A DNA stretch of 64,000 nucleotides from an uncultured Spirochaetota bacterium (GCA_963820525.1 CAWGAA010000002.1:160001-224000), one strand, 5' to 3'; counted from the first letter of the stretch, positions 36,833 to 49,570 are shown. A program made the numbers and translations. Notes: generated from the sequence alone by a model not told the origin.

Positions 36833-38376
36833 AGACGCGCGCGTCAAGCTTCGATGCGCCCCTCGACGGAGCGAATCTCTGCCTCTGCCTGACGGGACGC
36901 TCCATCGAGGAGGACCTCCAGATCGTTCGTGAACACGGCAGGCATGCCGACCTCCTGGAGCTTCGCGTCGATTTTCTCTCCGCCGGCGAGCGCTCCCTCG
37001 CCTCGCGAATACCCGGGCTTGTCCGGCTTCCCGTGATCCTCACGGTCCGCCGGACCAAGGAAGGGGGGCAGTTCGCGGGTGAGGAATCCGAGAGGGTCTC
37101 CCTTTTACGGCGGCTTGTTTCCAGCGGCTTCGCTTTCGCGGATCTCGAGGAGGATCTGGAGGCCCCGGAGCTCGACCAGGCGGCGCGCGCGGCCGGATGC
37201 CGCGTCATCCGCTCGCTGCACGATACCGGCGGAGTTCCAGAGGACCTGGCGCGGCGGCTCGCCTGCATTGCGCGAAACCGGCAGGAGATCGCCAAGGCGG
37301 CCGTCACTCCCTGCGGCGCCGAGGAGCTCCGGCGGCTTCTGGGTGTGTTCGCGGAAACGCGCGGGATGGCGAAGATCCTCATTGGAATGGGCGAGGTGGG
37401 TTTTCCCACCCGCGTGCTGGCGGGCAAGCTCGGCTCCCTGGTGTCCTACTCATCGGGCCCGGGGAGGAACGCCGCGCCCGGGCAGACGGATCCCGGGACC
37501 CTTCACGATCTGTATCGCTTCCATTCCATCGGGGCAGAGACCGCGGTGTTCGGGGTGATCGGCGATCCCATTGCCCACACGCTTTCGCCCCTGATCCACA
37601 ACAGGGGATTCGCGGCGCTGGGAATGGACGCCGTTTACCTGCCGTTTCTCGTGGATGAACCGGCGCCGTTCCTGAAGGCGGCCGAGACGCTGGATATCCG
37701 GGGCTTTTCCGTCACGATCCCGCACAAGCAGGCCGTCATCCCGCTGCTTGAGCGGCGCGACCGGTTCGTGGAATCGGCCGGTGCGTGCAACACGGTGATG
37801 AAGAGCCCCACCGGGTGGAGCGGATTCAACACCGATTCCGAAGGCTTTCTCTCCCCCCTGCGCCAGGAGCTGGGCGGCGAGATCCCGCCCGGATTGAAGG
37901 CCACCGTGATCGGCGCCGGAGGGGCTTCCCGGGCAGTTGTGTCGGCTCTCCGCGAGCATGGTGCCCGGGTCCTCGTCCTCAACCGCACCCCGGGGAGGGC
38001 CGAAGAGCTTGCGCGCGCCTTCGATGCCAGCTGGGCCTGCCTTGACGAGAATGGCATTGGACTGATGAGCGCCTACTCGGACCTCATCGTGCAGACGACG
38101 AGCGTGGGGATGGAGCCGGAGCCCGATGGCGACCCCGCGCCGGGATATCTTTTCACGGGCCGTGAAGTCGCCTACGATCTGGTGTACAGACCCGCAGTGA
38201 CGCGTTTTCTTTCCCGGGCGCGCGCGGCGGGATGCCGCATCGTTTTGGGATCCCGCATGCTCCTGGCCCAGGCTTTTGCGCAGTTCAAGCTGTTCACGGG
38301 GCGCGAGTATCCCGGGGAAATCGCGGCGGGGTTGGAGGAAGAGATGGGACTCGGGAGCGCGGCGTGGCAGATATGA
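36829..38376 (+). CDS. aroE: bifunctional type I 3-dehydroquinate dehydratase / shikimate dehydrogenase (aroD-aroE fusion)
   Basis: ELRVD, IRSLHD, AAPGQ; HTLSPLIHN, SVTIPHK, GACNT, NTD, GAGGAS, NRT, DLVY. Confidence 0.9.
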   Translation: MKTRASSFDAPLDGANLCLCLTGRSIEEDLQIVREHGRHADLLELRVDFLSAGERSLASRIPGLVRLPVILTVRRTKEGGQFAGEESERVSLLRRLVSSGFAFADLEEDLEAPELDQAARAAGCRVIRSLHDTGGVPEDLARRLACIARNRQEIAKAAVTPCGAEELRRLLGVFAETRGMAKILIGMGEVGFPTRVLAGKLGSLVSYSSGPGRNAAPGQTDPGTLHDLYRFHSIGAETAVFGVIGDPIAHTLSPLIHNRGFAALGMDAVYLPFLVDEPAPFLKAAETLDIRGFSVTIPHKQAVIPLLERRDRFVESAGACNTVMKSPTGWSGFNTDSEGFLSPLRQELGGEIPPGLKATVIGAGGASRAVVSALREHGARVLVLNRTPGRAEELARAFDASWACLDENGIGLMSAYSDLIVQTTSVGMEPEPDGDPAPGYLFTGREVAYDLVYRPAVTRFLSRARAAGCRIVLGSRMLLAQAFAQFKLFTGREYPGEIAAGLEEEMGLGSAAWQI

Positions 38377-39323
38377 AATTCCCCATCAACCCGGAAGAGC
38401 TTTCGGAGATCGTGGCCGTCTGCGATCAGGACGGGATCATTCTCTGGTGGAACCGGGCCGGCAGCGAAATCACGGGATTCTCCGCGGATGATCTTGCGGG
38501 ATATCACGTCGAATCGCTTTTCTCTGAAGAATCCCGGGGGGGCCTCGCTGAAATCCTCAGCCTGCGCAGGACGGGAACCATCCTGCCGGGAATGCCTCTC
38601 CGCCTTCTCACCAACTACGGGATGGAGGTGCCGGTGGAGGCGACTTCCCTCCCTCGCTACAAGGAGGGAACGTTCGACGGATGGCTGCTGATCCTGCGGG
38701 ACGTCACCCTGAAGGTTCAGCAGGTCGGGCAGCTCGACAAGCTGGATCTCCTCTATAGAAGCCTCGTGGAGAACTCGCCGGCCATCGTCTATGTGCTCGA
38801 TGATCAGGGCAAGCTGATTTTCGTCAACGACACGGCGGAGCTCCTCTTGGGCTACGCCAAGGCGGAGCTCATCGGGCGCGAGCTCTCGGACTTCGTACAC
38901 CCCGAGGACAGGGCGCGTGCATACTGGCCGCTTCGGGAGCGCAGGCGTTTCCCCCGCGCCACGCAGAACTGCGAGTTCCGCTTCGTGACCAAAGCCGGCA
39001 CCACCCGCCGCTTCGATCTCGATTACCTCTACGTCTCCCTCAACAGCATCGGCCTGCAGGATCCCGTCTCGGCTCCGGGGCAGGATCAGGCCCTCTCTCT
39101 CGGCACTCAGGGCATTGCGCGCGACATCACGGAGCTGGTCATGTTCCGCGAGTTCTCCCGGCAGGTCTCGCTGATCCTTCCCATCTGCAGCGTTTGCCAC
39201 AAGATCCGGGTGGAAATAAAGGGCGGCGAGGAATGGGTTCCCCTCGATTCGTATATCTCGGGCAAGACCACCACGCGCTTCTCCCACACCTTCTGCCCCG
39301 ATCATATGCCGAAGGCGGAGTGA
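38373..39323 (+). CDS. tandem PAS-domain protein with a C-terminal Cys/His motif
   Basis: two PAS repeats (WNRAGSEITGFS; VNDTAELLLGY..FVHPED..GIARDIT); LPICSVCHKIR...FSHTFCPDH. Confidence 0.8.
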   Translation: MKFPINPEELSEIVAVCDQDGIILWWNRAGSEITGFSADDLAGYHVESLFSEESRGGLAEILSLRRTGTILPGMPLRLLTNYGMEVPVEATSLPRYKEGTFDGWLLILRDVTLKVQQVGQLDKLDLLYRSLVENSPAIVYVLDDQGKLIFVNDTAELLLGYAKAELIGRELSDFVHPEDRARAYWPLRERRRFPRATQNCEFRFVTKAGTTRRFDLDYLYVSLNSIGLQDPVSAPGQDQALSLGTQGIARDITELVMFREFSRQVSLILPICSVCHKIRVEIKGGEEWVPLDSYISGKTTTRFSHTFCPDHMPKAE

Positions 39324-39416
39324 AGCCGCTCCATCGAGAATATTTTCACGATTACGGCTTGACTCATTTTTCTTTTTTTGTACTATTATGCAAACCTTCA
39401 TCAAGAGAGGAAAACG

Positions 39417-40493
39417 ATGCCGCACAAGAAACTCTTCATCCCAGGGCCTACCGAAGTCCATCCCGACATCCTGGCCGCCATGGCCACTCCCATGATCGGG
39501 CACAGAGGATCCGAGTACACGGAGCTGCAGAAGCGCGCCACAGAAAAGGTGCAGAAGCTTCTCTTTACCGCCAATCCCGTGCTCTTCTCCGCCTCATCGG
39601 GAAGCGGGTTGATGGAAGGGGCGATTCGCTGCAGCACCGCCAAGCGTGCCATCGTTTTCTCCGTCGGCACCTTTGGAAACCGCTGGCACGAGATCGCCGA
39701 AGGCAATGGAGTTCCCTCGGACAAGCACGAGGTGGAGTGGGGCACCGGGATCACCCCGAAGATCGTGGAGCAGTACCTGTCCACGGGCAAGTACGACTGC
39801 GCCACCGTCACCCACAGCGAAACCTCCACCGGAGTCATGAACAATCTCGAGGAGCTGGCCCCCGTGTTCAAGAAATACCCCGAGGTGGTGTGGTGCATCG
39901 ACGCGGTGTCCTCGGCGGGCGGAGTCAAGATAGAGACCGACAAGCTGGGAATCGACATCCTGGTCACCTCCAGCCAGAAATGCCTCGGCCTGCCCCCCGG
40001 GCTGAGCCTCGCCACGCTCTCCCCCAAGGCGGAGGAGCGCGCCAAGGGGGTGAAGAACCGCGGCTACTACTTCGACCTCCTTCAGCTCTTGAAGTTCATC
40101 CGGGAGAAGAACTACCAGTATCCCTCCACGATGAGCATCTCCCACATGTTCGCCCTGGATCGGCAGCTGGACAGGATGATGGCCGAAGGCTTCGACGCGC
40201 GGTTCAAGAGGCATGCCGAGATGGCGGCCATCGTCCAGGAGTGGGCAAAGAAGTATTTCGCCCTGTATCCCGAAGAGAAGCTCGCCTCCAAGACCGTGAC
40301 GTGCATCAAGAACACGCGCGGCATCGTGGTGGCGGATCTCAACAAGGAGCTGGGAAAGCGCAACCTTCAGCTCTCCAACGGCTACGGAAAGCTCAAGGAG
40401 CAGACCTTCCGCATCGCCCACATGGGAGACCTTCAGAAGAGCGACATCAACGAGCTTCTCACGGCCGTCCAGGACATCCTGAAGCTGAAATGA
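39417..40493 (+). CDS. class V PLP aminotransferase (alanine-glyoxylate/serine-pyruvate family)
   Basis: LFIPGPT, HSETSTG, DAVSS, SSQKCLGLPPG, FRIAHMG. Confidence 0.92.
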   Translation: MPHKKLFIPGPTEVHPDILAAMATPMIGHRGSEYTELQKRATEKVQKLLFTANPVLFSASSGSGLMEGAIRCSTAKRAIVFSVGTFGNRWHEIAEGNGVPSDKHEVEWGTGITPKIVEQYLSTGKYDCATVTHSETSTGVMNNLEELAPVFKKYPEVVWCIDAVSSAGGVKIETDKLGIDILVTSSQKCLGLPPGLSLATLSPKAEERAKGVKNRGYYFDLLQLLKFIREKNYQYPSTMSISHMFALDRQLDRMMAEGFDARFKRHAEMAAIVQEWAKKYFALYPEEKLASKTVTCIKNTRGIVVADLNKELGKRNLQLSNGYGKLKEQTFRIAHMGDLQKSDINELLTAVQDILKLK

Positions 40494-40550
40494 TCGGCTC
40501 ACGGCCGCCTTCGCTGCCGTCTTAGCAGTGCGCCCGGCAGGACGCACTAG

Positions 40551-40691
40551 AAAACAGGCAGCAGATGGCTCCGCTGCCTGTCCAAATCTGCTCCCCCTAT
40601 TGGACGAGCTTAGAACATATTACTATGAGCACGGGATTGAGGAGATACCAGCTCTTCTCGCCGTTTGACAAGCGTGTTCGAGCCGGTTTCT
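40551..40691 (+). repeat. left 141-bp inverted repeat of the island (att-like junction plus terminator)
   Basis: reverse complement of 46810-46950 with 2 mismatches. Confidence 0.92.
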
Positions 40692-40723
40692 GCTCCCCCG
40701 GACGGACTCGAACCGCCGACCTA

Positions 40724-41860
40724 GTGTAGTGCGTCACAAATCTATTGACATATGTCTCGCTTCCTTGTATACTACCCTTGAAATGAGCAGGAAAGCCCAA
40801 GCGATTATACTCTGCGAAGCCGAGCGCGGGACGCTGGACACGTGGAAACACAGTAGAAGTCTCCCTCACCGGCAGGTGATTCGCGCACAGATCATCACAC
40901 GAGCGGCTGATGGCCAAGACAGTCAGGACATCGCCAGGGCTTTGCACGTGTCACGTCCCACGGTTCAGCTTTGGTGTCAGCGATTTCTCGCCCTGCGCGT
41001 GGAGGGTTTGCTGAAGGACGCGCCCCGGCCGGGAAGAAATCCCCGCATCTCAGCAGGAAAAATCAAGAAAGTGGTAGAGGCAACCTTGCACAGTACTCCC
41101 GCAAACGCCACCCATTGGAGTACGCGGAGCATGGCCAGAGCACAGAAACTCTCCGAAGCCAGTATTCGCCGCATCTGGAAACAACACAATCTCAAACCCC
41201 ATCTGGTGGAAACGTTCAAACTCAGTCGTGATAAAAACTTCGTGGAGAAGCTGAAGGACGTAGTCGGACTGTATCTGAATCCACCGGATAAGGCTCTTGT
41301 ATTATGTGTGGATGAAAAGAGCCAGATTCAAGCGCTCGACCGAACCCAGCCGCTGTTGCCCATGCGGCCGGGTGTTCCAGCTCGTCAGTCGCACGACTAT
41401 AAACGCAACGGCACGACAACGTTGTTCGCCGCTCTGAGCATGCTGGATGGACGGGTCATCGGTGATTGCATGCCACGGCATCGGCATCAGGAGTTCATCC
41501 GGTTTCTGAAAAAAATCGATGTCGAGACACCACCAGAATTGGAGCTTCACCTGATCGTGGACAACTACGGGACTCACAAACATGCTCGGGTGAAAGCATG
41601 GATTCAACGCCACCCCCGCTACCATCTGCATTTCATCCCGACGTCTAGTTCGTGGTTGAATATGGTCGAACGCTGGTTTCGTGAGATAACCGATAAAAGA
41701 ATTCGTCGTGGGACTTTCCCCAACGTCCAGACTCTGATTGCGGCTATTAAGCAGTACCTTGAGAATCACAATCAAAACCCGCAAGCCTTCGTCTGGAGTG
41801 CCCCGGTTGCGCATCCTCGCCAAAATCGCCAAATGTAAAGAAGCGTGAGACGCACTACAC
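40724..41860 (+). mobile_element. IS630-family insertion sequence
   Basis: terminal IRs GTGTAGTGCGTC[A/T]CA; TA duplication at 40722-23 and 41861-62 within a CTAG target. Confidence 0.92.
40783..41838 (+). CDS. IS630 transposase (extreme C-terminus probably frameshifted)
   Basis: DAPRPGR, THWSTR, CVDEKSQIQAL, IVDNYGTHK, PTSSSWLNMVE; RILAKIAKCKEA* lies in another frame. Confidence 0.93.
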   Translation: MSRKAQAIILCEAERGTLDTWKHSRSLPHRQVIRAQIITRAADGQDSQDIARALHVSRPTVQLWCQRFLALRVEGLLKDAPRPGRNPRISAGKIKKVVEATLHSTPANATHWSTRSMARAQKLSEASIRRIWKQHNLKPHLVETFKLSRDKNFVEKLKDVVGLYLNPPDKALVLCVDEKSQIQALDRTQPLLPMRPGVPARQSHDYKRNGTTTLFAALSMLDGRVIGDCMPRHRHQEFIRFLKKIDVETPPELELHLIVDNYGTHKHARVKAWIQRHPRYHLHFIPTSSSWLNMVERWFREITDKRIRRGTFPNVQTLIAAIKQYLENHNQNPQAFVWSAPVAHPRQNRQM

Positions 41861-42189
41861 TAGTGGTTAACAGCCACCCTGCCCAGGCTTTCCATCCCAG
41901 TCTTAATAGAAGGGGAGAGGCTTCGGCTGTCCTTCAGCTTCTACGCCGGAGAACCGCTGGAGCGGATCTGGGCTTCCCTGGAGGCACACTCGGAAAGTTC
42001 AGGTCGGCCGGTTCGGCTCCGGGTGAAGCGTTTCGCCGTGAAGCAAATCGAAGGACAGGAGAAGCACGACTTTCGCGTCTCGTGCTTCGATCTTGTTCAC
42101 GAAGATCGGCCGTGATCAGGAGATAGACGCCGTCTTTGATTAAGCTTCTGCGCAAGGGTACTTCAAGGGCAAGGGCGCTCGTCCCAGAG

Positions 42190-42545
42190 ACCGCGGCTAT
42201 TACATCTACTACAAGGCTTCTTCAACGGGCGGGCACTTCCAGATCGTGGCTGCCACAGCGGAAACGCCCGCTCCTGGCGGGACGCCCGGACCGGCTGCTG
42301 CTCCGGCTAACGTGCCGACAATCGCTCCCACATCCGCGCCAGGCGGATGAAAGGGCGACGTCAACAACTCCGGCAGTGTCGATATCGCTGACGCGCTCCT
42401 CGTCGCGCAGTACTATGTGGGATTGAATCCGATAGGCTTTGTGAGCGCAAATGCCGGTGTGAACTGCTCGGGCGGGATCGACGTTGTGGACGCGCTATTG
42501 ATCGCCCAGTATTGCGTGGGGCTCATCTCGTCCTTCCCCTGCTGA
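42190..42545 (+). pseudogene. 3' remnant of a secreted protein: Pro/Thr linker plus type I dockerin-like domain
   Basis: GDVNNSGSVDIADALLVAQYYVG...VNCSGGIDVVDALLIAQYCVG (42354-42545); in-frame TGA at 42348; absent from the ORF track. Confidence 0.8.
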
Positions 42546-42563
42546 TGCAAGATGAATGGGCCG

Positions 42564-44274
42564 CTATTTCTTTTTCCTGCCGGAATCATGTGCCGCGACC
42601 CACGCCTCGTATTCTGCGCCGACATCAGTCGGAGTTTTATTGCTTTTGATGAGCTCCTGCAGCAGCGGATTAAACACCCCCATTCCTTCGCGGTTCATAA
42701 CTATGTCTATAACAAATCCTGCAGGGGTTCTGGCGTTGAACGTGACGAGCTTCTTTGACATCGGATCGAGATTGGGGATATCAATTTTATATGCCACCTC
42801 CTGGTTTCCAGCGGATCCCAAGGCTTCGCTCCTTAATTTTGAGCCGCCCGGCCCCGAGTAGAACCATATCCATTTCCAGGCCGCATCCGCCTTCTTTTCC
42901 GTAAGCTTCGCATTCATTCCGAACCCGAAGCCTGGAACGGCGGATGTGGAACCAGCATTTTTCTCACCGGGGATCGCGGGAAAAACTTCGAGAGATACAT
43001 ACTCTTTCTGTTGTGGGGAGAGGCCGCTCGCGAAGCTTACGACTCTCCAGCTTCCGTCAATAAGATATACCGCCTTCTCGTTTATAAAATCTCCAAACGC
43101 GGTGCCGTAAGAATTTGCGTTGATTCCCGGAGAAAACATCTGAGCATCGGCTAGGTCTTTGATTACTTTTATCGCCCTAATAAATTCCGGATCAGTAAAC
43201 TTAGCTTTCCCTTCGATCGCTTTCTGGAACCATTCTTTGCCGCACATACGCTCAACAAGAACGCTCGCAAGGCACGACTGCAACTCCCAGCCTTCCCAGT
43301 TATCCATTGCGATCGGTATCAATTTTTTCGCCCTGATCTTCGCGCCTTGGTCGATCAATTCCGACAGTGTTTTCGGAAATGTGAGCCCCAATTCCTTTAG
43401 CAGCCTGTTGTTGGTGTACATGATATGAGTTGCGGTCACAACCCCTGGGAAGCTCGAAGAGTTCTCCGTTCGGCCCCTGAGGAATCAATGCTGCGGGTAT
43501 AAACTCGCCCTCGTGTCCTTTAAGGAATGGCCGCAGGTCCTTAAGCTTTCCGCCGGCGATCAACGTGTTCGGCCAATTGTATATGAGATCGGGCAATTGG
43601 CCCGCCGCTGCAGCCGCGGACAATTTCTGTAAATAGGATGACTCCTTGTATTCGTATTCGATCGTGAGCGTAGTATTCGGGTTTGCGGATTTGAATCCCG
43701 CAAGCAGCGAGTCCCAACTTAGTGATGATGCTGTATCCGACGGATTATTCATGTACATGAGCATGCTGAGCTGTACCTCATTATCAGTTTTTCCGGCTGT
43801 CACCGCAGTTCCCGCATTTCCTTCAGAGAGTTTGATGCCCACGCGGCTGGCGATTTTGAGCGTAATCGAGGCTTTGCCTTCATCCTCATCAGATGCCTGG
43901 GCCGTGATCGCCCCGGTCTGCACGTCGATCATCTTTGCCGAAATGAAATACGTACCAGCAACGAGGGAAACACGGGTCACGACGACGTAATCGGCGCCGA
44001 GCCGTTCCCCGGCCTTTTTGATCTCGGCGTTGCTCACGATGCCGGACATCTGGAATTCGAGCTCTTTGAGGCTTTGAGCGATGGTTGTTCTATCGAGAAC
44101 CGTAAACTTGAGCGAGGAGACGAGCTCTTCGCTTATCTTTTCGGTTATCCCGATTGATATATCCTTATCCATCTTTGCCGGCAGTAGTGCATCAAGGACA
44201 GCAACCTTGGGTAGAGCAGAGAGAAGTGTTGATGAAGCGAACAAGCAAATTAGCGGTAGCAGTTTTACTTTCAT
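42564..44274 (-). pseudogene. exported CsgG/HfaB-like domain fused to a sugar ABC substrate-binding domain, frameshifted near 43443
   Basis: signal peptide, KVAVLD..FTVLDR..LGADYV..KMIDVQTG; binding-protein motifs GQLPDL, KLIPIAM, DGSW continue in the second frame. Confidence 0.7.
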
Positions 44275-44356
44275 AAATTCCTCCTGGTTGATTTTATCTG
44301 AATAATTGTATAGTGAATATATGATGAATGCAATAAAAAATGGTATTTAGAGCAAA

Positions 44357-44674
44357 TTGTACATCCGCATCTCCAGTGAACGGCAGGCCAAGGTTGAAGA
44401 AGGTTCGCTGAAGAACCGGGAGCAGATGCTGCGCGCGGGGATCCAATTGAAGATGATTACCGGGGACTACTGGCTCACGGCGGAGCGAATCACAAGAGCA
44501 GCCGCAGGTGCGAATCCTCCTGTGCGAGAAGACCGACCGCCTCTATCGCAACTTCAAAGACTATGTGACCATCGACGAGCTGGACTTGAAGCTGATCTTG
44601 GTCAAAGAGGCTCGGTCTTGAACAAAGACTCCCGATCCCACGAGAAATTCATCCACAGCATCAAGGTGTTGATG
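44357..44674 (+). pseudogene. serine recombinase (large serine integrase-type) catalytic-domain fragments
   Basis: YIRISSERQ..EGSL (catalytic Ser motif); 44511-44609 RILLCEKTDRLYRNFKDYVTIDELD; after a frameshift, SRSHEKFIHSIKVLM. Confidence 0.75.
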
Positions 44675-44755
44675 TGGCGCAGGATCTTGATGGACCTCCT
44701 CCGGCTCGGTAATTTCGGCAAGAATCCGCATCGGAGCGGAACAACGTGGTCCGAG

Positions 44756-45317
44756 TCATTTGGCCTTCATGACTGTGACCTTGCCGCCGTTACCGCCGTC
44801 CTTATAGGCGATGTAGAGAGTATCCGACGAATCGATCGCCAGGGACGTATAGGCCGCCTCGCCCGCGCTGAAGCCCGCCGTGCCCACCGTCTGCCACGAG
44901 CCGTCGCCGTACTTCATGACCGTGGCCTTGGTGCTGTTTCCCCAGTCCAAATAGGCGACGAAGGGGGTGCCCGACGAATCAATCGCCAGGGAGGTATAGA
45001 CCGCTGTGCCCGCACTGAAGCCCGCCGTGCCTACCGTCTGCCACAAGGCGCCCCCGTACTTCATGACCGTGGCCTTGCCGCTGTGTGCGTAGTCCTCATA
45101 GGCGACGTAGGGGGTGCCCGACGAATCAATCGCCAGGGAGGTAAAGGACGCCTCGCCCGCGCTGAAGCCCGCCGTGCCCACCAGTTGCCACGAACCGCCG
45201 GTGTACTTCATGCCTGTGGCCTTGCCGCTGTTTCCCCAGTCCTCATAGGCGACTAAGGGGGTGCCGGACGAATCAATCGCCAGGGAGATATAGTCCGCCT
45301 CGCCCGCGCTGAAGCCC
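44756..45317 (-). repeat. about 3.8 tandem 147-bp (49-aa) coding repeats; 3' remnant of a beta-propeller-like surface protein
   Basis: CTTCATG recurs at 44765, 44912, 45059 and 45206; unit WQ.VGTAGFSAG.A.YTSLAIDSSGTPYVAY.D...GKATVMKY. Confidence 0.88.
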
Positions 45318-46028
45318 CCGGTACGTGTGGAGCTCGTCCAGGACCAGGAAGCGAAGGAGCTTGCCGCTCTGCACGAACGCGCGCTCCCGGGGCCGCGTGA
45401 GGATGAGCTCGAGCATGACGAAGTTGGTGAGCAGGATGTCCGGGGGGTTGGCCAGGATGCGCTGCCGCTCCTCCTCGCCCTCCTGCCCGGTGTATCGATC
45501 GAAGGTCACCGGGGTACTGCCGGCGGGCATCCCCAGTTTCAGGAACTTCTCCAGCTCCCCCTTCTGGCTGTTGGCCAGGGCGTTCATAGGGTAGATGACG
45601 ATGGCCCGCAGGCCCTTTCCGGACCCGCTACGGATAACGTGGTCCACGATGGGCACCATGTAGGCGAGACTCTTCCCGGACCCGGTTCCGGTGGTGAGCA
45701 CGTAGTTGTGCCCACCCGCTGCGATCCGGATGGCCTCCTCCTGGTGGCGATGCAGGCGCAGCATCGTCCCACGTCCCGCCGCGGTCTTCCCCACGCGGAA
45801 GATGCCCCGACACTGCTCGTGGAGCACGCCGTCGATCACGAACTCGTCGATCGTATGCCCGCGCTCGAAGGAGGGGTTCAACTGGATGAGGGGATCCGGC
45901 CACAGCTCGCCGTCGTCAAGGTGCTGGTTCACCGCGGCGCTGATCCTGACGTCCCGGATCACGAAGAAGCTCTTGATGTACTCTTCGTAGTCGCGGATGA
46001 GGTTATTGCGAAGACCGAAGACGTCCAT
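45318..46028 (-). pseudogene. DEAD/DEAH-box helicase, N-terminal fragment
   Basis: LHRHQEEAI, TGTGSGKS, YPMNALANSQ, PPDILLTN, LDELHTYRG, then an abrupt junction. Confidence 0.85.
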
Positions 46029-46566
46029 GCGATCACCCCGCAGCTTCAGAACTCTTTAAATTGCCCCGATTCAGTATAGTCAATAGACCCTAGAAATGAG
46101 CTTCCGAATATTTTCGCCTGATCGATCATATCACATTTGAGGGTCACTGAAACAGTCGATAGAATGGAGCTTCTTCACAATCCGCCCATCCCCGCAATAC
46201 CGACGGGCTACTTCCCAATACTCCTGGTCGCGGCCTTGCTCGGCTCTTGGGCTCAGACTCTTCACTGACGGTAGTACCCGATAACGGGTGATGATGAGTG
46301 GGCCCGTTGTTTGGGAGTGGCTCCACCGACTCCTTATCCTTCGGAGACGATATTGTTCCCCTCAGTGAGCCGCACCCCAGCACGTAGCGGTCCCCCGACG
46401 ACCGCTCTCCGTCTCAACGCCGAAACTCCCCGTTCCCTCCTCCGCCGGGCAACGTCCTGTTGCCCGGCGGCTCTCTTGAGCCCTACACACCCTGGCAGGG
46501 ACCAGGGGTGTGGGGCTCCTCTTGGGGGGCGCGAAAGAGAAGAAAAAGCTTCGCCTTCCCGACGCT

Positions 46567-46836
46567 TCAGACGCAGAACGTGCTCCGGTGCTCAACCACG
46601 ATGCCGAATCGGCCGAGGGCATCAAGGACCACGGATTGACTGACATGAGTGAGCTGGGCGATCTCCCGGATCGACAGGTTTTGTCCGGAGTAGAGTCCTC
46701 CCAGATATTCCCTGCGCTTCAGACGGAGCAGGGACGGAAGAGGGACGATACCCTCGATGATCGCGGGGAGCGCCGCGCTCCCGTTCGCTTTCTGTTTGCT
46801 TCGGGGAGGAGAAACCGGCTCGAACACGCTTGTCAA
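46567..46836 (-). CDS. small HTH-containing protein starting inside the right inverted repeat
   Basis: LYSGQNLSIREIAQLTHVSQSVVLDALGRFGI; TTG start overlaps the TGA of the short repeat-internal frame. Confidence 0.5.
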   Translation of the reverse strand: MTSVFEPVSPPRSKQKANGSAALPAIIEGIVPLPSLLRLKRREYLGGLYSGQNLSIREIAQLTHVSQSVVLDALGRFGIVVEHRSTFCV

Positions 46837-46950
46837 ACGGCGAGAAGAGCTGGTATCTCCTCAATCCCGTGCTCATAGCAATATGTCCTAAGCTCGTCCA
46901 ATAGGGGGAGCAGATTTGGACAGGCAGCGGAGCCATCTGCTGCCTGTTTT
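46810..46950 (-). repeat. right 141-bp inverted repeat of the island, ending in an outward-facing terminator
   Basis: matches the reverse complement of 40551-40691; hairpin ACAGGCAGC...GCTGCCTGT followed by TTT. Confidence 0.92.
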
Positions 46951-47034
46951 CACGGCTGCCGCGCCGGGACCCTCGAGTGCGTCCTGCGGCGCGCGAGGCT
47001 TGCGCACACGGGAGCCTGCGCATATACTAGGGCC

Positions 47035-47418
47035 ATGGAGGAGTTGAAGTGCTGCCTCTTCTGCGGCAGGTACATCGATAAGAGCTTCCGCTACTGCCCG
47101 TATTGCGGCTACGAGTTCACGGCGCGAGAGGAGCTCGGGGAGCAGCCGGAAGAGAGCGCGGAAGAACAGCCGCCCAACTTCGAGCCCGCCGAGTTCGAGC
47201 CGGACCTCCCGGCAATGGTAGCATGGCCGGCGCCGGTGGAAACGCGTCAGGCCGGCGACAAAGCGGCAGACCGCGTCCTGGCGTACCTGGAGAGGCTTCG
47301 AGACATCGAAAAGCATCTCTCCGACATGGAAAGGGAGCTCGACTTCATCATCTCGCGGGCTCGTCCCCTGCAGTCAGCCGCGCGAGGGCCCGTCACGTCC
47401 TCTTCAAAAGGTCCTTGA
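47035..47418 (+). CDS. zinc-ribbon domain protein
   Basis: CLFCG...YCPYCG N-terminus, coiled-coil C-terminus. Confidence 0.7.
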   Translation: MEELKCCLFCGRYIDKSFRYCPYCGYEFTAREELGEQPEESAEEQPPNFEPAEFEPDLPAMVAWPAPVETRQAGDKAADRVLAYLERLRDIEKHLSDMERELDFIISRARPLQSAARGPVTSSSKGP

Positions 47419-48628
47419 TAACGCTCCTGTCGTCGAGGAGCGAGCTTAAGCTTCTGTTGTGGTGCAGCCGGTAGATGATCCGGCCGAACAGGCTCGACAC
47501 GTCCGCGCTTAAGTACCATTCCCTGCCCAGAAGGGTGTCGTCATGGTACACCGCGTTCGTCCCGATGATGCGGTAGAACATCCCCTGCCGGTAGGCGTTC
47601 TCGAAGCTTTCCACGGCGCGCGCGGTGAACAGCGGCAGGCTCGTTGCCGAGATGATCCTCTCCGCCCCGAACTCCTTGAGGACCCGCATCGCCTTGATCA
47701 GGGTGCCGCCGGTGCCCAGCATGTCGTCGCTCATGAAGACGGTCTTCCCTTCGACGCTTCCCAGGAGCTTCATGTCCGTGATGTTTCCGTTCTCCGCGTT
47801 CTGGGCCACCCGCGAGTAGTCCCTCTCCTTGTACAGCATTCCCAGAGGCTTTCCCAGGATGGAAGCGAAGAACTTGTTGCGGTCCACCGCTCCCGTATCG
47901 GGCGCCACGATGACCAGCCGCTCGTCCTTCAGATCGATGATGGTGGAGAGCACCTTCAGGATCTGGTAGGTGCCGTGGAGGTTCTCCATCCGCATCTTGT
48001 TGAAGCTGTTCTCGATCTCCTTGGAGTGGATATCGAGGGTGATGACGCGCGCGACGCCGAGATACTCGAGGATCTGGCCGATGCGGGCCGCCGAGAGGCT
48101 CTCCCGTCCCTTTTTCTTGTGCTGGCGCGAGTACGGGTAGGTGGGGAGGACCACGGTGACCTGCTGCGCCCCCGCCTGCATCGCGGCGTCCACGGTCACC
48201 AGGAGGCAGAAGATATGATCGTTCACCGAGAGGACGCAGGGATCGTCTGATTTCTGGAACTGGAGGGGATAGTTGTTGCACACGTCCTGCACAACGTACA
48301 CGTCGGTATTGCGCACGGACCCGAGGATCTCGGTCTTGAACTCGCCGTTGGGAAAGCGCGTGTAGCAGGCCTGGACGAGGTAGTTGGGAGTGCGATACCG
48401 GTCCGGCGGCTCATCCGAATCCCAATGCGATGGGAGAAGGTCGCTGGCCAGGTTGATCCGCCGCAGGATCTCCGCCCGCTCCAGGCCGTAGGACCTGCTC
48501 AAGCTCCTGATGCGGTCTTCGAACTTGTCCCTGGTGGCGGCCTCCAGGAAGGAGAGGAGCCTCTGGGCGAAGCTCATCCCGCCCGGGCAGGGCAGGATGC
48601 CGATCTGAGACTGGCTTAAGTCGGGCAT
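47393..48628 (-). CDS. prs: ribose-phosphate pyrophosphokinase
   Basis: FPNGE, PTYPYSRQHKK, TLDIHS, APDTGA, DDMLGTGGT. Confidence 0.92.
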   Translation of the reverse strand: MPDLSQSQIGILPCPGGMSFAQRLLSFLEAATRDKFEDRIRSLSRSYGLERAEILRRINLASDLLPSHWDSDEPPDRYRTPNYLVQACYTRFPNGEFKTEILGSVRNTDVYVVQDVCNNYPLQFQKSDDPCVLSVNDHIFCLLVTVDAAMQAGAQQVTVVLPTYPYSRQHKKKGRESLSAARIGQILEYLGVARVITLDIHSKEIENSFNKMRMENLHGTYQILKVLSTIIDLKDERLVIVAPDTGAVDRNKFFASILGKPLGMLYKERDYSRVAQNAENGNITDMKLLGSVEGKTVFMSDDMLGTGGTLIKAMRVLKEFGAERIISATSLPLFTARAVESFENAYRQGMFYRIIGTNAVYHDDTLLGREWYLSADVSSLFGRIIYRLHHNRSLSSLLDDRSVIKDLLKRT

Positions 48629-48634
48629 CGATCT

Positions 48635-49570
48635 CTAGCGCTTCCGCTTCCGGAAATAGGCCGCCGTATTCTTGAGCCCCTCCTCGAGGGAGTGCGACGG
48701 CGTCCACCCCAGCACCGCCTTCGCCTTGGAGTTGTCCAGGCAGCTTCGCCTGATGTCCCCCGGCCGCGGGCCGGCGGAGGTGAAGGCGAGCTCCTTGCCC
48801 ATGACGCGGCAGATGGCGGCGAGAAGCTGCTTGGTTTTCACCGGCTCGGCTGAACCGATGTTGAGGGCCTCCCCGTCTCCCTTCTCCAGGGCAAGAAGGT
48901 TGGCCTTGGCCACGTCCTCGACGTACACGTAATCGCGCGACATCCCGTCGGGGTCCTCGGGAAAGGCGTTGACCGTGGGCGTTTCCCCGGCGAGGAGCTT
49001 GTTGATGAAGATGGCCACGACGCCGGCCTCTCCGGTGGGATCCTGCCGGGGCCCGTAGACGTTGGCGTAGCGCAGGATGGTGAAGCCCAGACCGTACTGG
49101 CGGTTGTAGAACCTGACGTAATTCTCGCCGGTCTGCTTGTGGATGGCGTAGGGGGAGAGCGGCTGGGGAGGGTAGTCTTCCGAAGCCTTCTCGACGGAGG
49201 CCTCTCCATAGATTGCGCCGCCCGAGGAGACGAAGATCAGCTTCTTCACCGAGGCGGTGCGGCAGCATTCCAGGAGATTGAGGGTTCCCAGGGCGTTCAC
49301 CTCGGCGTCAAGGGCGGGGTTTCTCGCGGAAACGGTGACGCTGATCTGGGCCGCGTGATGGCTCACGACATCGGGTCTTTCGATCATGAAGACCTTCGCC
49401 AGCTCCGGGGCCTTGATGTTCAGCAGGTAGAACGAGGCTCCCCGGGGCACGGTGGAGCGCGAGCCCGAGCTGAGGTCATCCACGATCACAACCTGGTGGC
49501 CGGCCGCAAGGTAGGCATCGGCGACGTGAGACCCGATGAAGCCGGCTCCTCCCGTGAGAAGCACTTTCAT
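48635..49570 (-). CDS. NAD-dependent epimerase/dehydratase (GalE-like)
   Basis: TGGAGFIGSH, SSGGAIYG, YAIHK, RYANVYGPRQ. Confidence 0.92.
   Translation of the reverse strand: MKVLLTGGAGFIGSHVADAYLAAGHQVVIVDDLSSGSRSTVPRGASFYLLNIKAPELAKVFMIERPDVVSHHAAQISVTVSARNPALDAEVNALGTLNLLECCRTASVKKLIFVSSGGAIYGEASVEKASEDYPPQPLSPYAIHKQTGENYVRFYNRQYGLGFTILRYANVYGPRQDPTGEAGVVAIFINKLLAGETPTVNAFPEDPDGMSRDYVYVEDVAKANLLALEKGDGEALNIGSAEPVKTKQLLAAICRVMGKELAFTSAGPRPGDIRRSCLDNSKAKAVLGWTPSHSLEEGLKNTAAYFRKRKR

Follow-up and report, generated by a model that had tools for sequence, protein, structure and literature searches.

A decayed mosaic block between inverted copies of a gene leader, and its tRNA-Asn joint, in an uncultured Spirochaetota bacterium

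Background

Islands integrated in tRNA genes leave a recognizable trace, which consists of a 3' fragment of the tRNA, foreign DNA of deviant GC content and a junction at the tRNA 3' end with a short block of identity (PMC4383910). A second group of integrating systems is that of the serine integrases, whose attachment sites are covered in PMC3783163. Here, we analyze a 6.4-kb block of DNA at positions 40550-46951 of a 64,000-nucleotide stretch (hereafter, the window) from an uncultured Spirochaetota bacterium (GCA_963820525.1, CAWGAA010000002.1:160001-224000). The block is bracketed by a long inverted repeat and contains part of a tRNA-Asn gene. It had been noticed in an earlier reading of the window, made from the sequence alone and referred to below as the original prediction.

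The block is unusual in its layout but of a known kind, a decayed scar without sign of present function. We interpret it, at about even chances, as a decayed mosaic insertion, namely the recombination scar of an integrative element that targeted tRNA-Asn, in which the two arms of the repeat are duplicated copies of the leader of a small helix-turn-helix gene.

Results and discussion

Structure of the inverted repeat

When each arm region was used as a BLASTN query against the window, positions 40550-40698 and 46951-46803 emerged as a reverse-complement pair of 149 nt, identical at 146 of the 149 positions (E 2e-70). The three mismatches fall at 40614/46887, 40622/46879 and 40692/46809 and leave a longest exact run of 69 nt. 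The original prediction had described an inverted repeat of 141 nt with 2 mismatches, which is the inner part of this longer one. It had also suggested a BLASTN search of the repeat; with either arm region as query, this returned the one reverse-complement partner and no third copy in the window, and no further copy in 80 related loci (see below).

Read inward, the two arms are alike: a hairpin is followed by an 11-mer, 91 nt, a start codon and 8 codons that end in a second 11-mer (Table 1). In other words, each arm consists of the hairpin, a single 102-nt module with TCTGCTCCCCC at its boundaries and the opening 8 codons of the helix-turn-helix gene. The 11-mer (GGGGGAGCAGA on the opposite strand) has exactly three exact matches in the window, all within the arms, and the two copies in the left arm are 102 nt apart. 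The fourth position, in the right arm, holds the variant TCTCCTCCCC, which encodes S-P-P, codons 6-8 of the helix-turn-helix gene when counted from the GTG at 46827; the protein family conserves [S/A]-P at this place.

Table 1. Features of the block and of its immediate flanks, grouped by subject
Feature	Position	Strand	Details
Left arm of inverted repeat	40550..40698		On the + strand in the order hairpin, 11-mer, 91 nt, GTG start and 8 codons closing in second 11-mer
Right arm of inverted repeat	46803..46951		On the - strand, same leader, running unbroken into helix-turn-helix gene
Outer 11-mer core, left arm	40587..40597	+	Exact match
Inner 11-mer core, left arm	40689..40699	+	Exact match; overlaps last 7 nt of tRNA-Asn fragment (other strand); recombinant joint
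Outer 11-mer core, right arm	46904..46914	-	Exact match
Inner core variant	46803..46812	-	One-mismatch 10-mer; direct reading
Terminator-like hairpin, left arm	40554..40581	-	12-bp stem, then UUUUC towards aminotransferase gene; RNA fold
Terminator-like hairpin, right arm	46920..46947	+	12-bp stem, then UUUUC towards zinc-ribbon gene; RNA fold
Small helix-turn-helix open reading frame (ORF)	46567..46836	-	Start TTG 46836 or GTG 46827; short member of its family, in which the longer ones also have Recombinase PF07508
tRNA-Asn fragment, distal piece	40693..40723	-	Variable loop, T arm, acceptor 3' strand, discriminator G; direct reading
tRNA-Asn fragment, proximal piece	41861..41878	-	Anticodon stem, CTGTTAA loop (anticodon GTT, Asn); direct reading
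IS630-family element	40724..41860	+	15-bp perfect terminal inverted repeats; TA duplication in CTAG (40722-40723, 41861-41862); transposase ORF 40783-41838
Dockerin type I fragment	42351..42542	+	Pfam PF00404, E 2.6e-8
Solute-binding lipoprotein gene, two overlapping frames	42567..44346	-	Frameshift between 43303 and 43484; GC 0.495; Pfam SBP_bac_8, SBP_bac_1, LpoB
Serine recombinase N-terminus remnant	44357..44618	+	Two frames, about 90 aa, with P-type-ATPase-like stretch; Pfam Resolvase E 0.012
Repeat-protein fragment	44759..45505	-	At least 3 tandem 147-nt (49-aa) units; weak Pfam matches only
DEAD/DEAH-box helicase N-terminal fragment	45276..46055	-	About 250 aa; Pfam DEAD E 5e-22; NCBIfam partial, models of 740-800 positions
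Outer inverted match, left half	40530..40549		Possibly one arm of a host hairpin split by the insertion
Outer inverted match, right half	46973..46994		Partner of left-flank stretch
Class V aminotransferase, left host flank	39378..40493	+	Pfam; 74-82% identical in loci L001-L014 and L017
Zinc-ribbon gene with conserved promoter, right host flank	47035..47418	+	Pfam; directly after aminotransferase in 15 related loci

The native arrangement at the right joint is supported by the protein family to which the helix-turn-helix gene belongs. A full HMMER search identified 66 homologues among 1.84 billion representatives. Many of these align from query residue 9-17, i.e., within the right arm, and the right arm is therefore natively contiguous with the gene. 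The homologue consensus reads F-[D/E]-x-V-x-[S/A]-P, then Q-x-A-N-G, then P-A-L-I-E-G-x-I-P-L-P, followed by the helix-turn-helix. In one homologue, P0050, the 102-nt module of the arm is present upstream of the helix-turn-helix in two or more tandem copies, with a period of 34 residues in the second frame of the arm; the E-values for this come from searches of very small databases. What lies between the two 11-mers is accordingly a module that is repeated in the leader of this gene family, and not tRNA flank. These observations contradict the earlier view of the arms as a duplicated att arm together with its terminator: what is duplicated is a gene leader with 8 codons, and not an att arm of the host.

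The longer homologues P0017, P0024, P0040 and P0061 carry the first half of the Recombinase domain PF07508 (E 3e-8 to 1.2e-10). P0017, used in a tblastn search, matched the Recombinase domain in proteins of plasmids and phages that are annotated as serine recombinases, and in a protein atlas it falls among clusters of 'Recombinase domain-containing protein' with 136-188 residues. These longer relatives combine helix-turn-helix and PF07508 and have no catalytic domain. The window ORF is a short form that ends just after the helix-turn-helix, like P0001, P0002 and P0007, and has no Resolvase, Recombinase or zinc-ribbon domain. A link to serine recombinases, as originally proposed, thus holds by way of a different gene, since it is the relatives of the arm-borne helix-turn-helix gene that carry PF07508. 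In the 80 related loci, a search for the family gave one unrelated match only. Translation of positions 46442-46549 (- strand), just downstream of the helix-turn-helix ORF, resembles a stretch upstream of the helix-turn-helix of P0051 (E 5.5e-4, small database), which hints at a tandem occurrence of family units. The N-terminus F-D-S-V of homologues was also considered as a translated tRNA T-loop; this idea was rejected, as gene and tRNA are here antisense to each other and long, protein-like extensions occur in frame in some homologues.

At the outer end of each arm, the hairpin has the sequence ACAGGCAGC..GCTGCCTGT, and its UUUUC points out of the island in both arms. A terminator with an outward U-tract had been predicted; the hairpin and its direction were found as described, but the U-tract has just 4 U and a consensus terminator scan listed neither outer hairpin, so that they are described here as no more than terminator-like. 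Each arm also folds a long inner hairpin, and the z-scores of the two arm folds against shuffled sequences are -5.4 and -4.3. Rfam gave no match in 38000-49000 at E up to 1 and chance-level hairpin matches only for the arms alone, so the arms correspond to no known RNA. Template switching at a hairpin was discarded as the origin of the repeat, because it would place the hairpin at the repeat centre and the hairpins sit at the outer ends.

The open frame LLPLLDELRTY[Y/C]YEHGIEEIPALLAV*, also part of the original prediction, can be read directly as a frame of 26 codons, but nothing was found that supports it as a gene. A start codon is missing from its right-arm copy, in which the hairpin is immediately preceded by an in-frame TGA. 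For the longest frame of the arm (40526-40726), a word-indexed protein search returned no homologue. Alignments of the LLPLL frame as the C-terminus of a serine recombinase or as a decayed helix-turn-helix unit were insignificant (E 0.1-0.3 in a tiny database), and both candidates were dropped.

The tRNA-Asn joint

The left joint is recombinant: here the leader is fused, at the inner 11-mer, to an antisense fragment of tRNA-Asn. This remnant comprises the 3' two-thirds of the tRNA (positions 27-76), is cut at the anticodon stem, and is split at CTAG by an intact IS630-family element. At the joint, the inner 11-mer is read as codons 6-8 of the gene and also as the final 7 nt of the tRNA followed by 4 nt of trailer. 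The left joint is thus shaped like a hybrid attachment site that has the 11-mer for its common core, and the shared arm is element DNA. The 11-mer may then be the crossover site of a site-specific recombinase, and the element may formerly have targeted tRNA-Asn. An att-like core had been predicted for the repeat, and the 11-mer indeed behaves like a recombination junction, as the left arm meets the exact 3' end of the tRNA-Asn fragment there.

Other parts of the tRNA were not detected. ARAGORN found no tRNA in the 64-kb window, a 16-nt motif of the 5' half had 0 matches and none of this half was seen beyond the proximal piece, and there is no second tRNA remnant beside the right arm. For the distal piece, Rfam returned only a weak, truncated match to the 3' end of tmRNA. 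A tRNA-Asn is absent among the 28 tRNAs of the 80 related loci, hence these provide no comparison gene. No homologue was returned by the word-indexed protein search for the ORF at 41864-42112, which adjoins the tRNA fragment.

The transposase of the IS630-family element matches NCBIfam model NF033545 (transpos_IS630) with 277.8 bits, compared with a cut-off of 100, over positions 2-299 of 299, and also Pfam DDE_3 and helix-turn-helix domains. The 15-bp ends occur in the window only at 40721 and 41863. The CTAG target with its TA duplication is the one given for IS630 in Table 1 of PMC2577343. In its terminal repeats, target duplication and DDE transposase the element is like other IS630 members, with no difference found; it is an ordinary family member, unrelated to the 149-nt arms. 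At 41790-41838 (+ strand), beyond the NCBIfam model, the last ~15 transposase codons read better in another frame (..LRILAKIAKCKEA*), which suggests a frameshift or a sequencing error near the 3' end.

Comparison with related loci

Using the aminotransferase protein encoded at 39378-40493, we retrieved 80 related loci, of which the best are from uncultured Spirochaetota (74-82% identity); the closest are all metagenome-assembled genomes. In 15 of the 17 best loci, the aminotransferase gene is followed by the zinc-ribbon and PRPP synthetase genes with no island, and the gap between the first two is 50-607 nt. By blastn and by tblastx, neither the arms nor parts of the interior matched any of the 80 loci or the window outside the island. 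GC content is 0.558 in the island and 0.63-0.64 in the flanks, with individual island parts ranging from 0.495 to 0.64. Positions 40550-46951 are therefore an insertion in this lineage.

The original prediction had proposed a comparison with the empty locus and had suggested a rearrangement at a tRNA-Asn locus. The comparison bore out the empty site, in that the aminotransferase and zinc-ribbon genes are immediate neighbours in 15 of the 17 closest loci, and it argues against the second suggestion: all 23 related loci that were scanned lack a tRNA and, together with the adjacency of the flanking genes, this indicates that the site is not an ancestral tRNA-Asn locus. Direct reading revealed no direct repeat flanking either 40550/46951 or 40530/46994, i.e., no target-site duplication.

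A weaker inverted match lies outside the arms, between 40530-40551 and 46973-46994 (19 of 22 positions), with the right side offset by ~22 extra bases. When the block was removed in silico, 40530-40548 paired with 46976-46994 in a 17-bp hairpin, with a z-score of -4.3 or -2.5 according to the position chosen for the cut, and the relatives have GC-rich palindromes at the site equivalent to these flanks. A host hairpin may therefore have been split by the insertion, which would also account for the weak outer repeat. The outer 22-nt match was considered as a dispersed REP-like repeat and rejected, as there is no other good copy in the window. In addition, the flanks outside the arms (40534-40551 and 46973-46990) hold TAGTGCGTC or GAGTGCGTC, as seen on comparison with 40721-40735. 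TAGTGCGTC has a 9-mer in common with the IS630 terminal repeat, and between the CTAG-led stretch of the left flank and that repeat the difference is one 5-nt unit; both similarities are possibly due to chance.

A possible course of events and its alternatives

If the block is the scar of a tRNA-Asn-targeting element, the arms would be two copies of one mobile-element piece, the leader and first 8 codons of the small helix-turn-helix gene. The right arm preserves the native order of leader and gene. In the left arm, the leader is joined at the inner 11-mer to the antisense 3' part of tRNA-Asn, a type of joint that arises from recombination of an element with a tRNA gene at its 3' end. An earlier event would have cut the tRNA piece at the anticodon stem, the IS630-family insertion at CTAG followed later, and the remaining interior is debris of unrelated genes. 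The inverted arms could derive from two element copies and an inversion or deletion, or from a native terminal-repeat architecture.

Several points weigh against this interpretation. Direct repeats, and no duplication of 149 nt, are what one integration event leaves, so that the inverted layout needs extra, unobserved events. The arms end ~0-22 nt from the inferred insertion boundaries, and this position at the insertion ends to some degree fits an element with terminal repeats better than it fits a random scar. An intact tRNA-Asn, an intact integrase and a second joint are all absent from the window, and hence the att assignment rests on one junction. Identity over 11-15 nt is typical of tyrosine rather than serine integrases, and no tyrosine integrase was seen in the block. 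Finally, with a flank protein only 74-82% identical in the closest genomes, the age of the insertion and its exact ends are not fixed.

An alternative that we regard as unlikely is that the block is a now non-autonomous transposon-like element, which has the 149-nt terminal inverted repeats as its native ends and was inserted in the loop of a host hairpin between the two flanking genes, with the tRNA-Asn piece acquired later via the inner 11-mer. Such an element would explain why arms of 149 nt and 98% identity lie at the very ends of the DNA missing from relatives, why the outer flanks pair as a 17-bp hairpin in the in-silico empty site, and why GC-rich palindromes occur at the same position in relatives. 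It would leave unexplained the lack of a target-site duplication at either plausible boundary and of a further arm copy in the window or in the 80 related loci, and no transposase matches the arm ends, as the only intact transposase gene belongs to the IS630 element, whose ends differ. The same three observations tell against the suggestion, in the original prediction, of a cassette mobilised in trans. Nor would a terminal repeat be predicted to stop, as the left arm does, at the precise 3' end of a tRNA. We consider it quite doubtful that the arms are instead the 3' flanks of two divergent tRNA-Asn copies with their own terminators, both hit and destroyed by integrative elements. Outward terminator-like hairpins are what two divergent tRNA genes would be expected to have, the left arm is contiguous with the 3' part of tRNA-Asn, and displaced 3' fragments are left by islands in tRNA genes (PMC4383910). 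However, homologues of the helix-turn-helix protein align into the arm and P0050 has the 102-nt module in tandem, and most of the arm thus belongs to the element and not to a tRNA flank; moreover, the 23 related loci scanned have no tRNA, and the right arm has no second tRNA remnant beside it.

An artefact of assembly, in which a metagenomic contig was mis-joined via repeated leader modules or strain variants, also appears improbable. The patchwork of the interior, with GC content from 0.495 to 0.64, would be compatible with it, as would the metagenomic origin of the closest relatives, which the window possibly shares, and the fact that the leader module is a repeated sequence family. Yet both outer flanks are syntenic with 15 related genomes and the flanking genes are intact, the IS630 insertion in the tRNA fragment has a clean TA duplication, and the arms differ at three positions with no exact run above 69 nt. 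Still less probable, in our view, is an invertible segment that acts as a switch, its interior being flipped by recombination between the arms, although the arms carry an inward-reading gene start and 149 nt at 98% identity suffices for inversion of the interior by homologous recombination. As the arms have the leader and the 8 codons in common, a flip leaves both borders as they were; one of the partners is a tRNA fragment with an insertion sequence rather than an alternative gene body, and the repeats are present without an intact invertase or recombinase. The invertible cassette of the original prediction fails on the first of these points. As it stands, the block looks unable to move or switch, save for the IS630 element and for an inversion that RecA might drive between the 149-nt arms.

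It is also conceivable, as a long shot, that the arms are the working ends of an undescribed integrative element. Such an element would have arrays of ~102-nt modules, each ending in an 11-mer copy of the tRNA-Asn 3' end; small proteins with a helix-turn-helix and a Recombinase domain would read these modules and, as they lack a catalytic serine domain, would need a partner enzyme; and the layout with terminal inverted repeats would permit insertion both in hairpin loops and at a tRNA. In that event, the variable number of modules, with one in the window and two or more in P0050, would reflect successive recombination events at the 11-mer.

Comparison with described systems

Like Islander-type islands, the block has a tRNA fragment that extends from the anticodon stem to the 3' end beside foreign DNA of deviant GC content, and a junction at the tRNA 3' end with a short block of identity. 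Unlike them, it has neither an intact tRNA gene nor an integrase, its sole long bracketing repeat is inverted and not direct, the repeated DNA is mostly element sequence (the gene leader), and the related species examined have no tRNA at the site.

In systems of integration-dependent phage immunity, the core lies at the 3' end of the repressor gene and the integrase is a tyrosine recombinase. The block is similar to temperate phages with attP inside a gene, such as certain mycobacteriophages and Gordonia phages, in that its putative core lies inside a coding sequence, at codons 6-8 of the helix-turn-helix gene; recombination with the tRNA would accordingly split this gene from its promoter. 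It differs in having the core at the 5' end of a gene of no assigned role and in that its only recombinase link is the Recombinase domain in relatives.

The PF07508 Recombinase domain of serine integrases reads attachment sites, and these enzymes need only 2 nt of identity, not 11 nt. The longer relatives of the arm-borne gene share this domain with large serine recombinases, and the interior has a short Resolvase-like remnant; in the family, however, the helix-turn-helix replaces the catalytic serine domain, and the window copy lacks the Recombinase domain as well. With composite transposons and those with long terminal repeats, the block has in common that two inverted copies bracket unrelated DNA at the exact insertion ends; unlike these, it has no target duplication or cognate transposase, and no other copy was found in the window or the 80 loci.

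A decayed scar of this kind, as it stands, changes little. The part that most deserves attention is a widespread uncharacterized family of small proteins, with a helix-turn-helix and a Recombinase domain and no catalytic domain, whose genes have a repeated leader module with a boundary that copies a tRNA 3' end. The locus also indicates that insertion ends can keep att-type junction copies that are inverted rather than direct, a case which island finders that rely on direct tRNA fragments would miss.

Contents of the interior

The interior was described originally as mostly broken genes with serine-recombinase fragments among them. The broken genes were confirmed in the form of a dockerin fragment, a frameshifted lipoprotein gene, a helicase fragment and a repeat-protein fragment, in which the tandem 147-nt units at 44765-45322 are 83-84% identical. 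The serine-recombinase fragments received weak support, as their Resolvase match lies below the curated Pfam cut-off. The remnant contains the motif YIRISSERQ, which we take to be a serine-recombinase motif, and matched no solved structure. In a six-frame Pfam scan that covered 103 open frames, no integrase was detected apart from this Resolvase remnant, and the interior has no intact recombinase.

At 44420-44500 (+ strand), 27-36 residues with an MITGD motif match copper-transporting P-type ATPases (E 0.0045 for a copper ATPase in PDB, E 0.037 for an NCBIfam P-type ATPase) and lie in frame between two serine-recombinase pieces. This embedded stretch indicates that the mosaic is fine-grained, on a scale of ~100 nt. 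In distant-mode searches with the whole island, a plasmid collection matched only the IS630 element and the helicase fragment, and a phage collection gave no match.

Other observations in the flanks

The region between the aminotransferase and zinc-ribbon genes is variable in relatives: it has ~600 nt with an ORF in locus L007 and 190-270 nt in L002 and L009, and L003 has a run of N. On the other side of the aminotransferase gene, a gene with two PAS domains (38232-39323, + strand) lies between it and a shikimate-pathway gene. This gene is missing there in the closest relatives, in which the space is ~200 nt compared with ~1190 nt in the window, and homologues of 44-45% identity occur at other places in L025 and L029. 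The gene thus has the look of a second insertion specific to this lineage, beside the island.

Upstream of the zinc-ribbon gene, positions 46995-47037 hold a promoter-like motif, TTGCAA or TTGCGC followed after 17 nt by TATACT. This motif is conserved in the 15 loci compared (L001-L014 and L017), and in each of them, as in the window, only 6-7 nt separate its end from the ATG. A promoter this near the ATG suggests a leaderless zinc-ribbon mRNA. At the other end of this gene, the 3' ends of the zinc-ribbon (+ strand) and PRPP synthetase (- strand) genes overlap by ~26 nt (47393-47418), and this gene arrangement is conserved in relatives.

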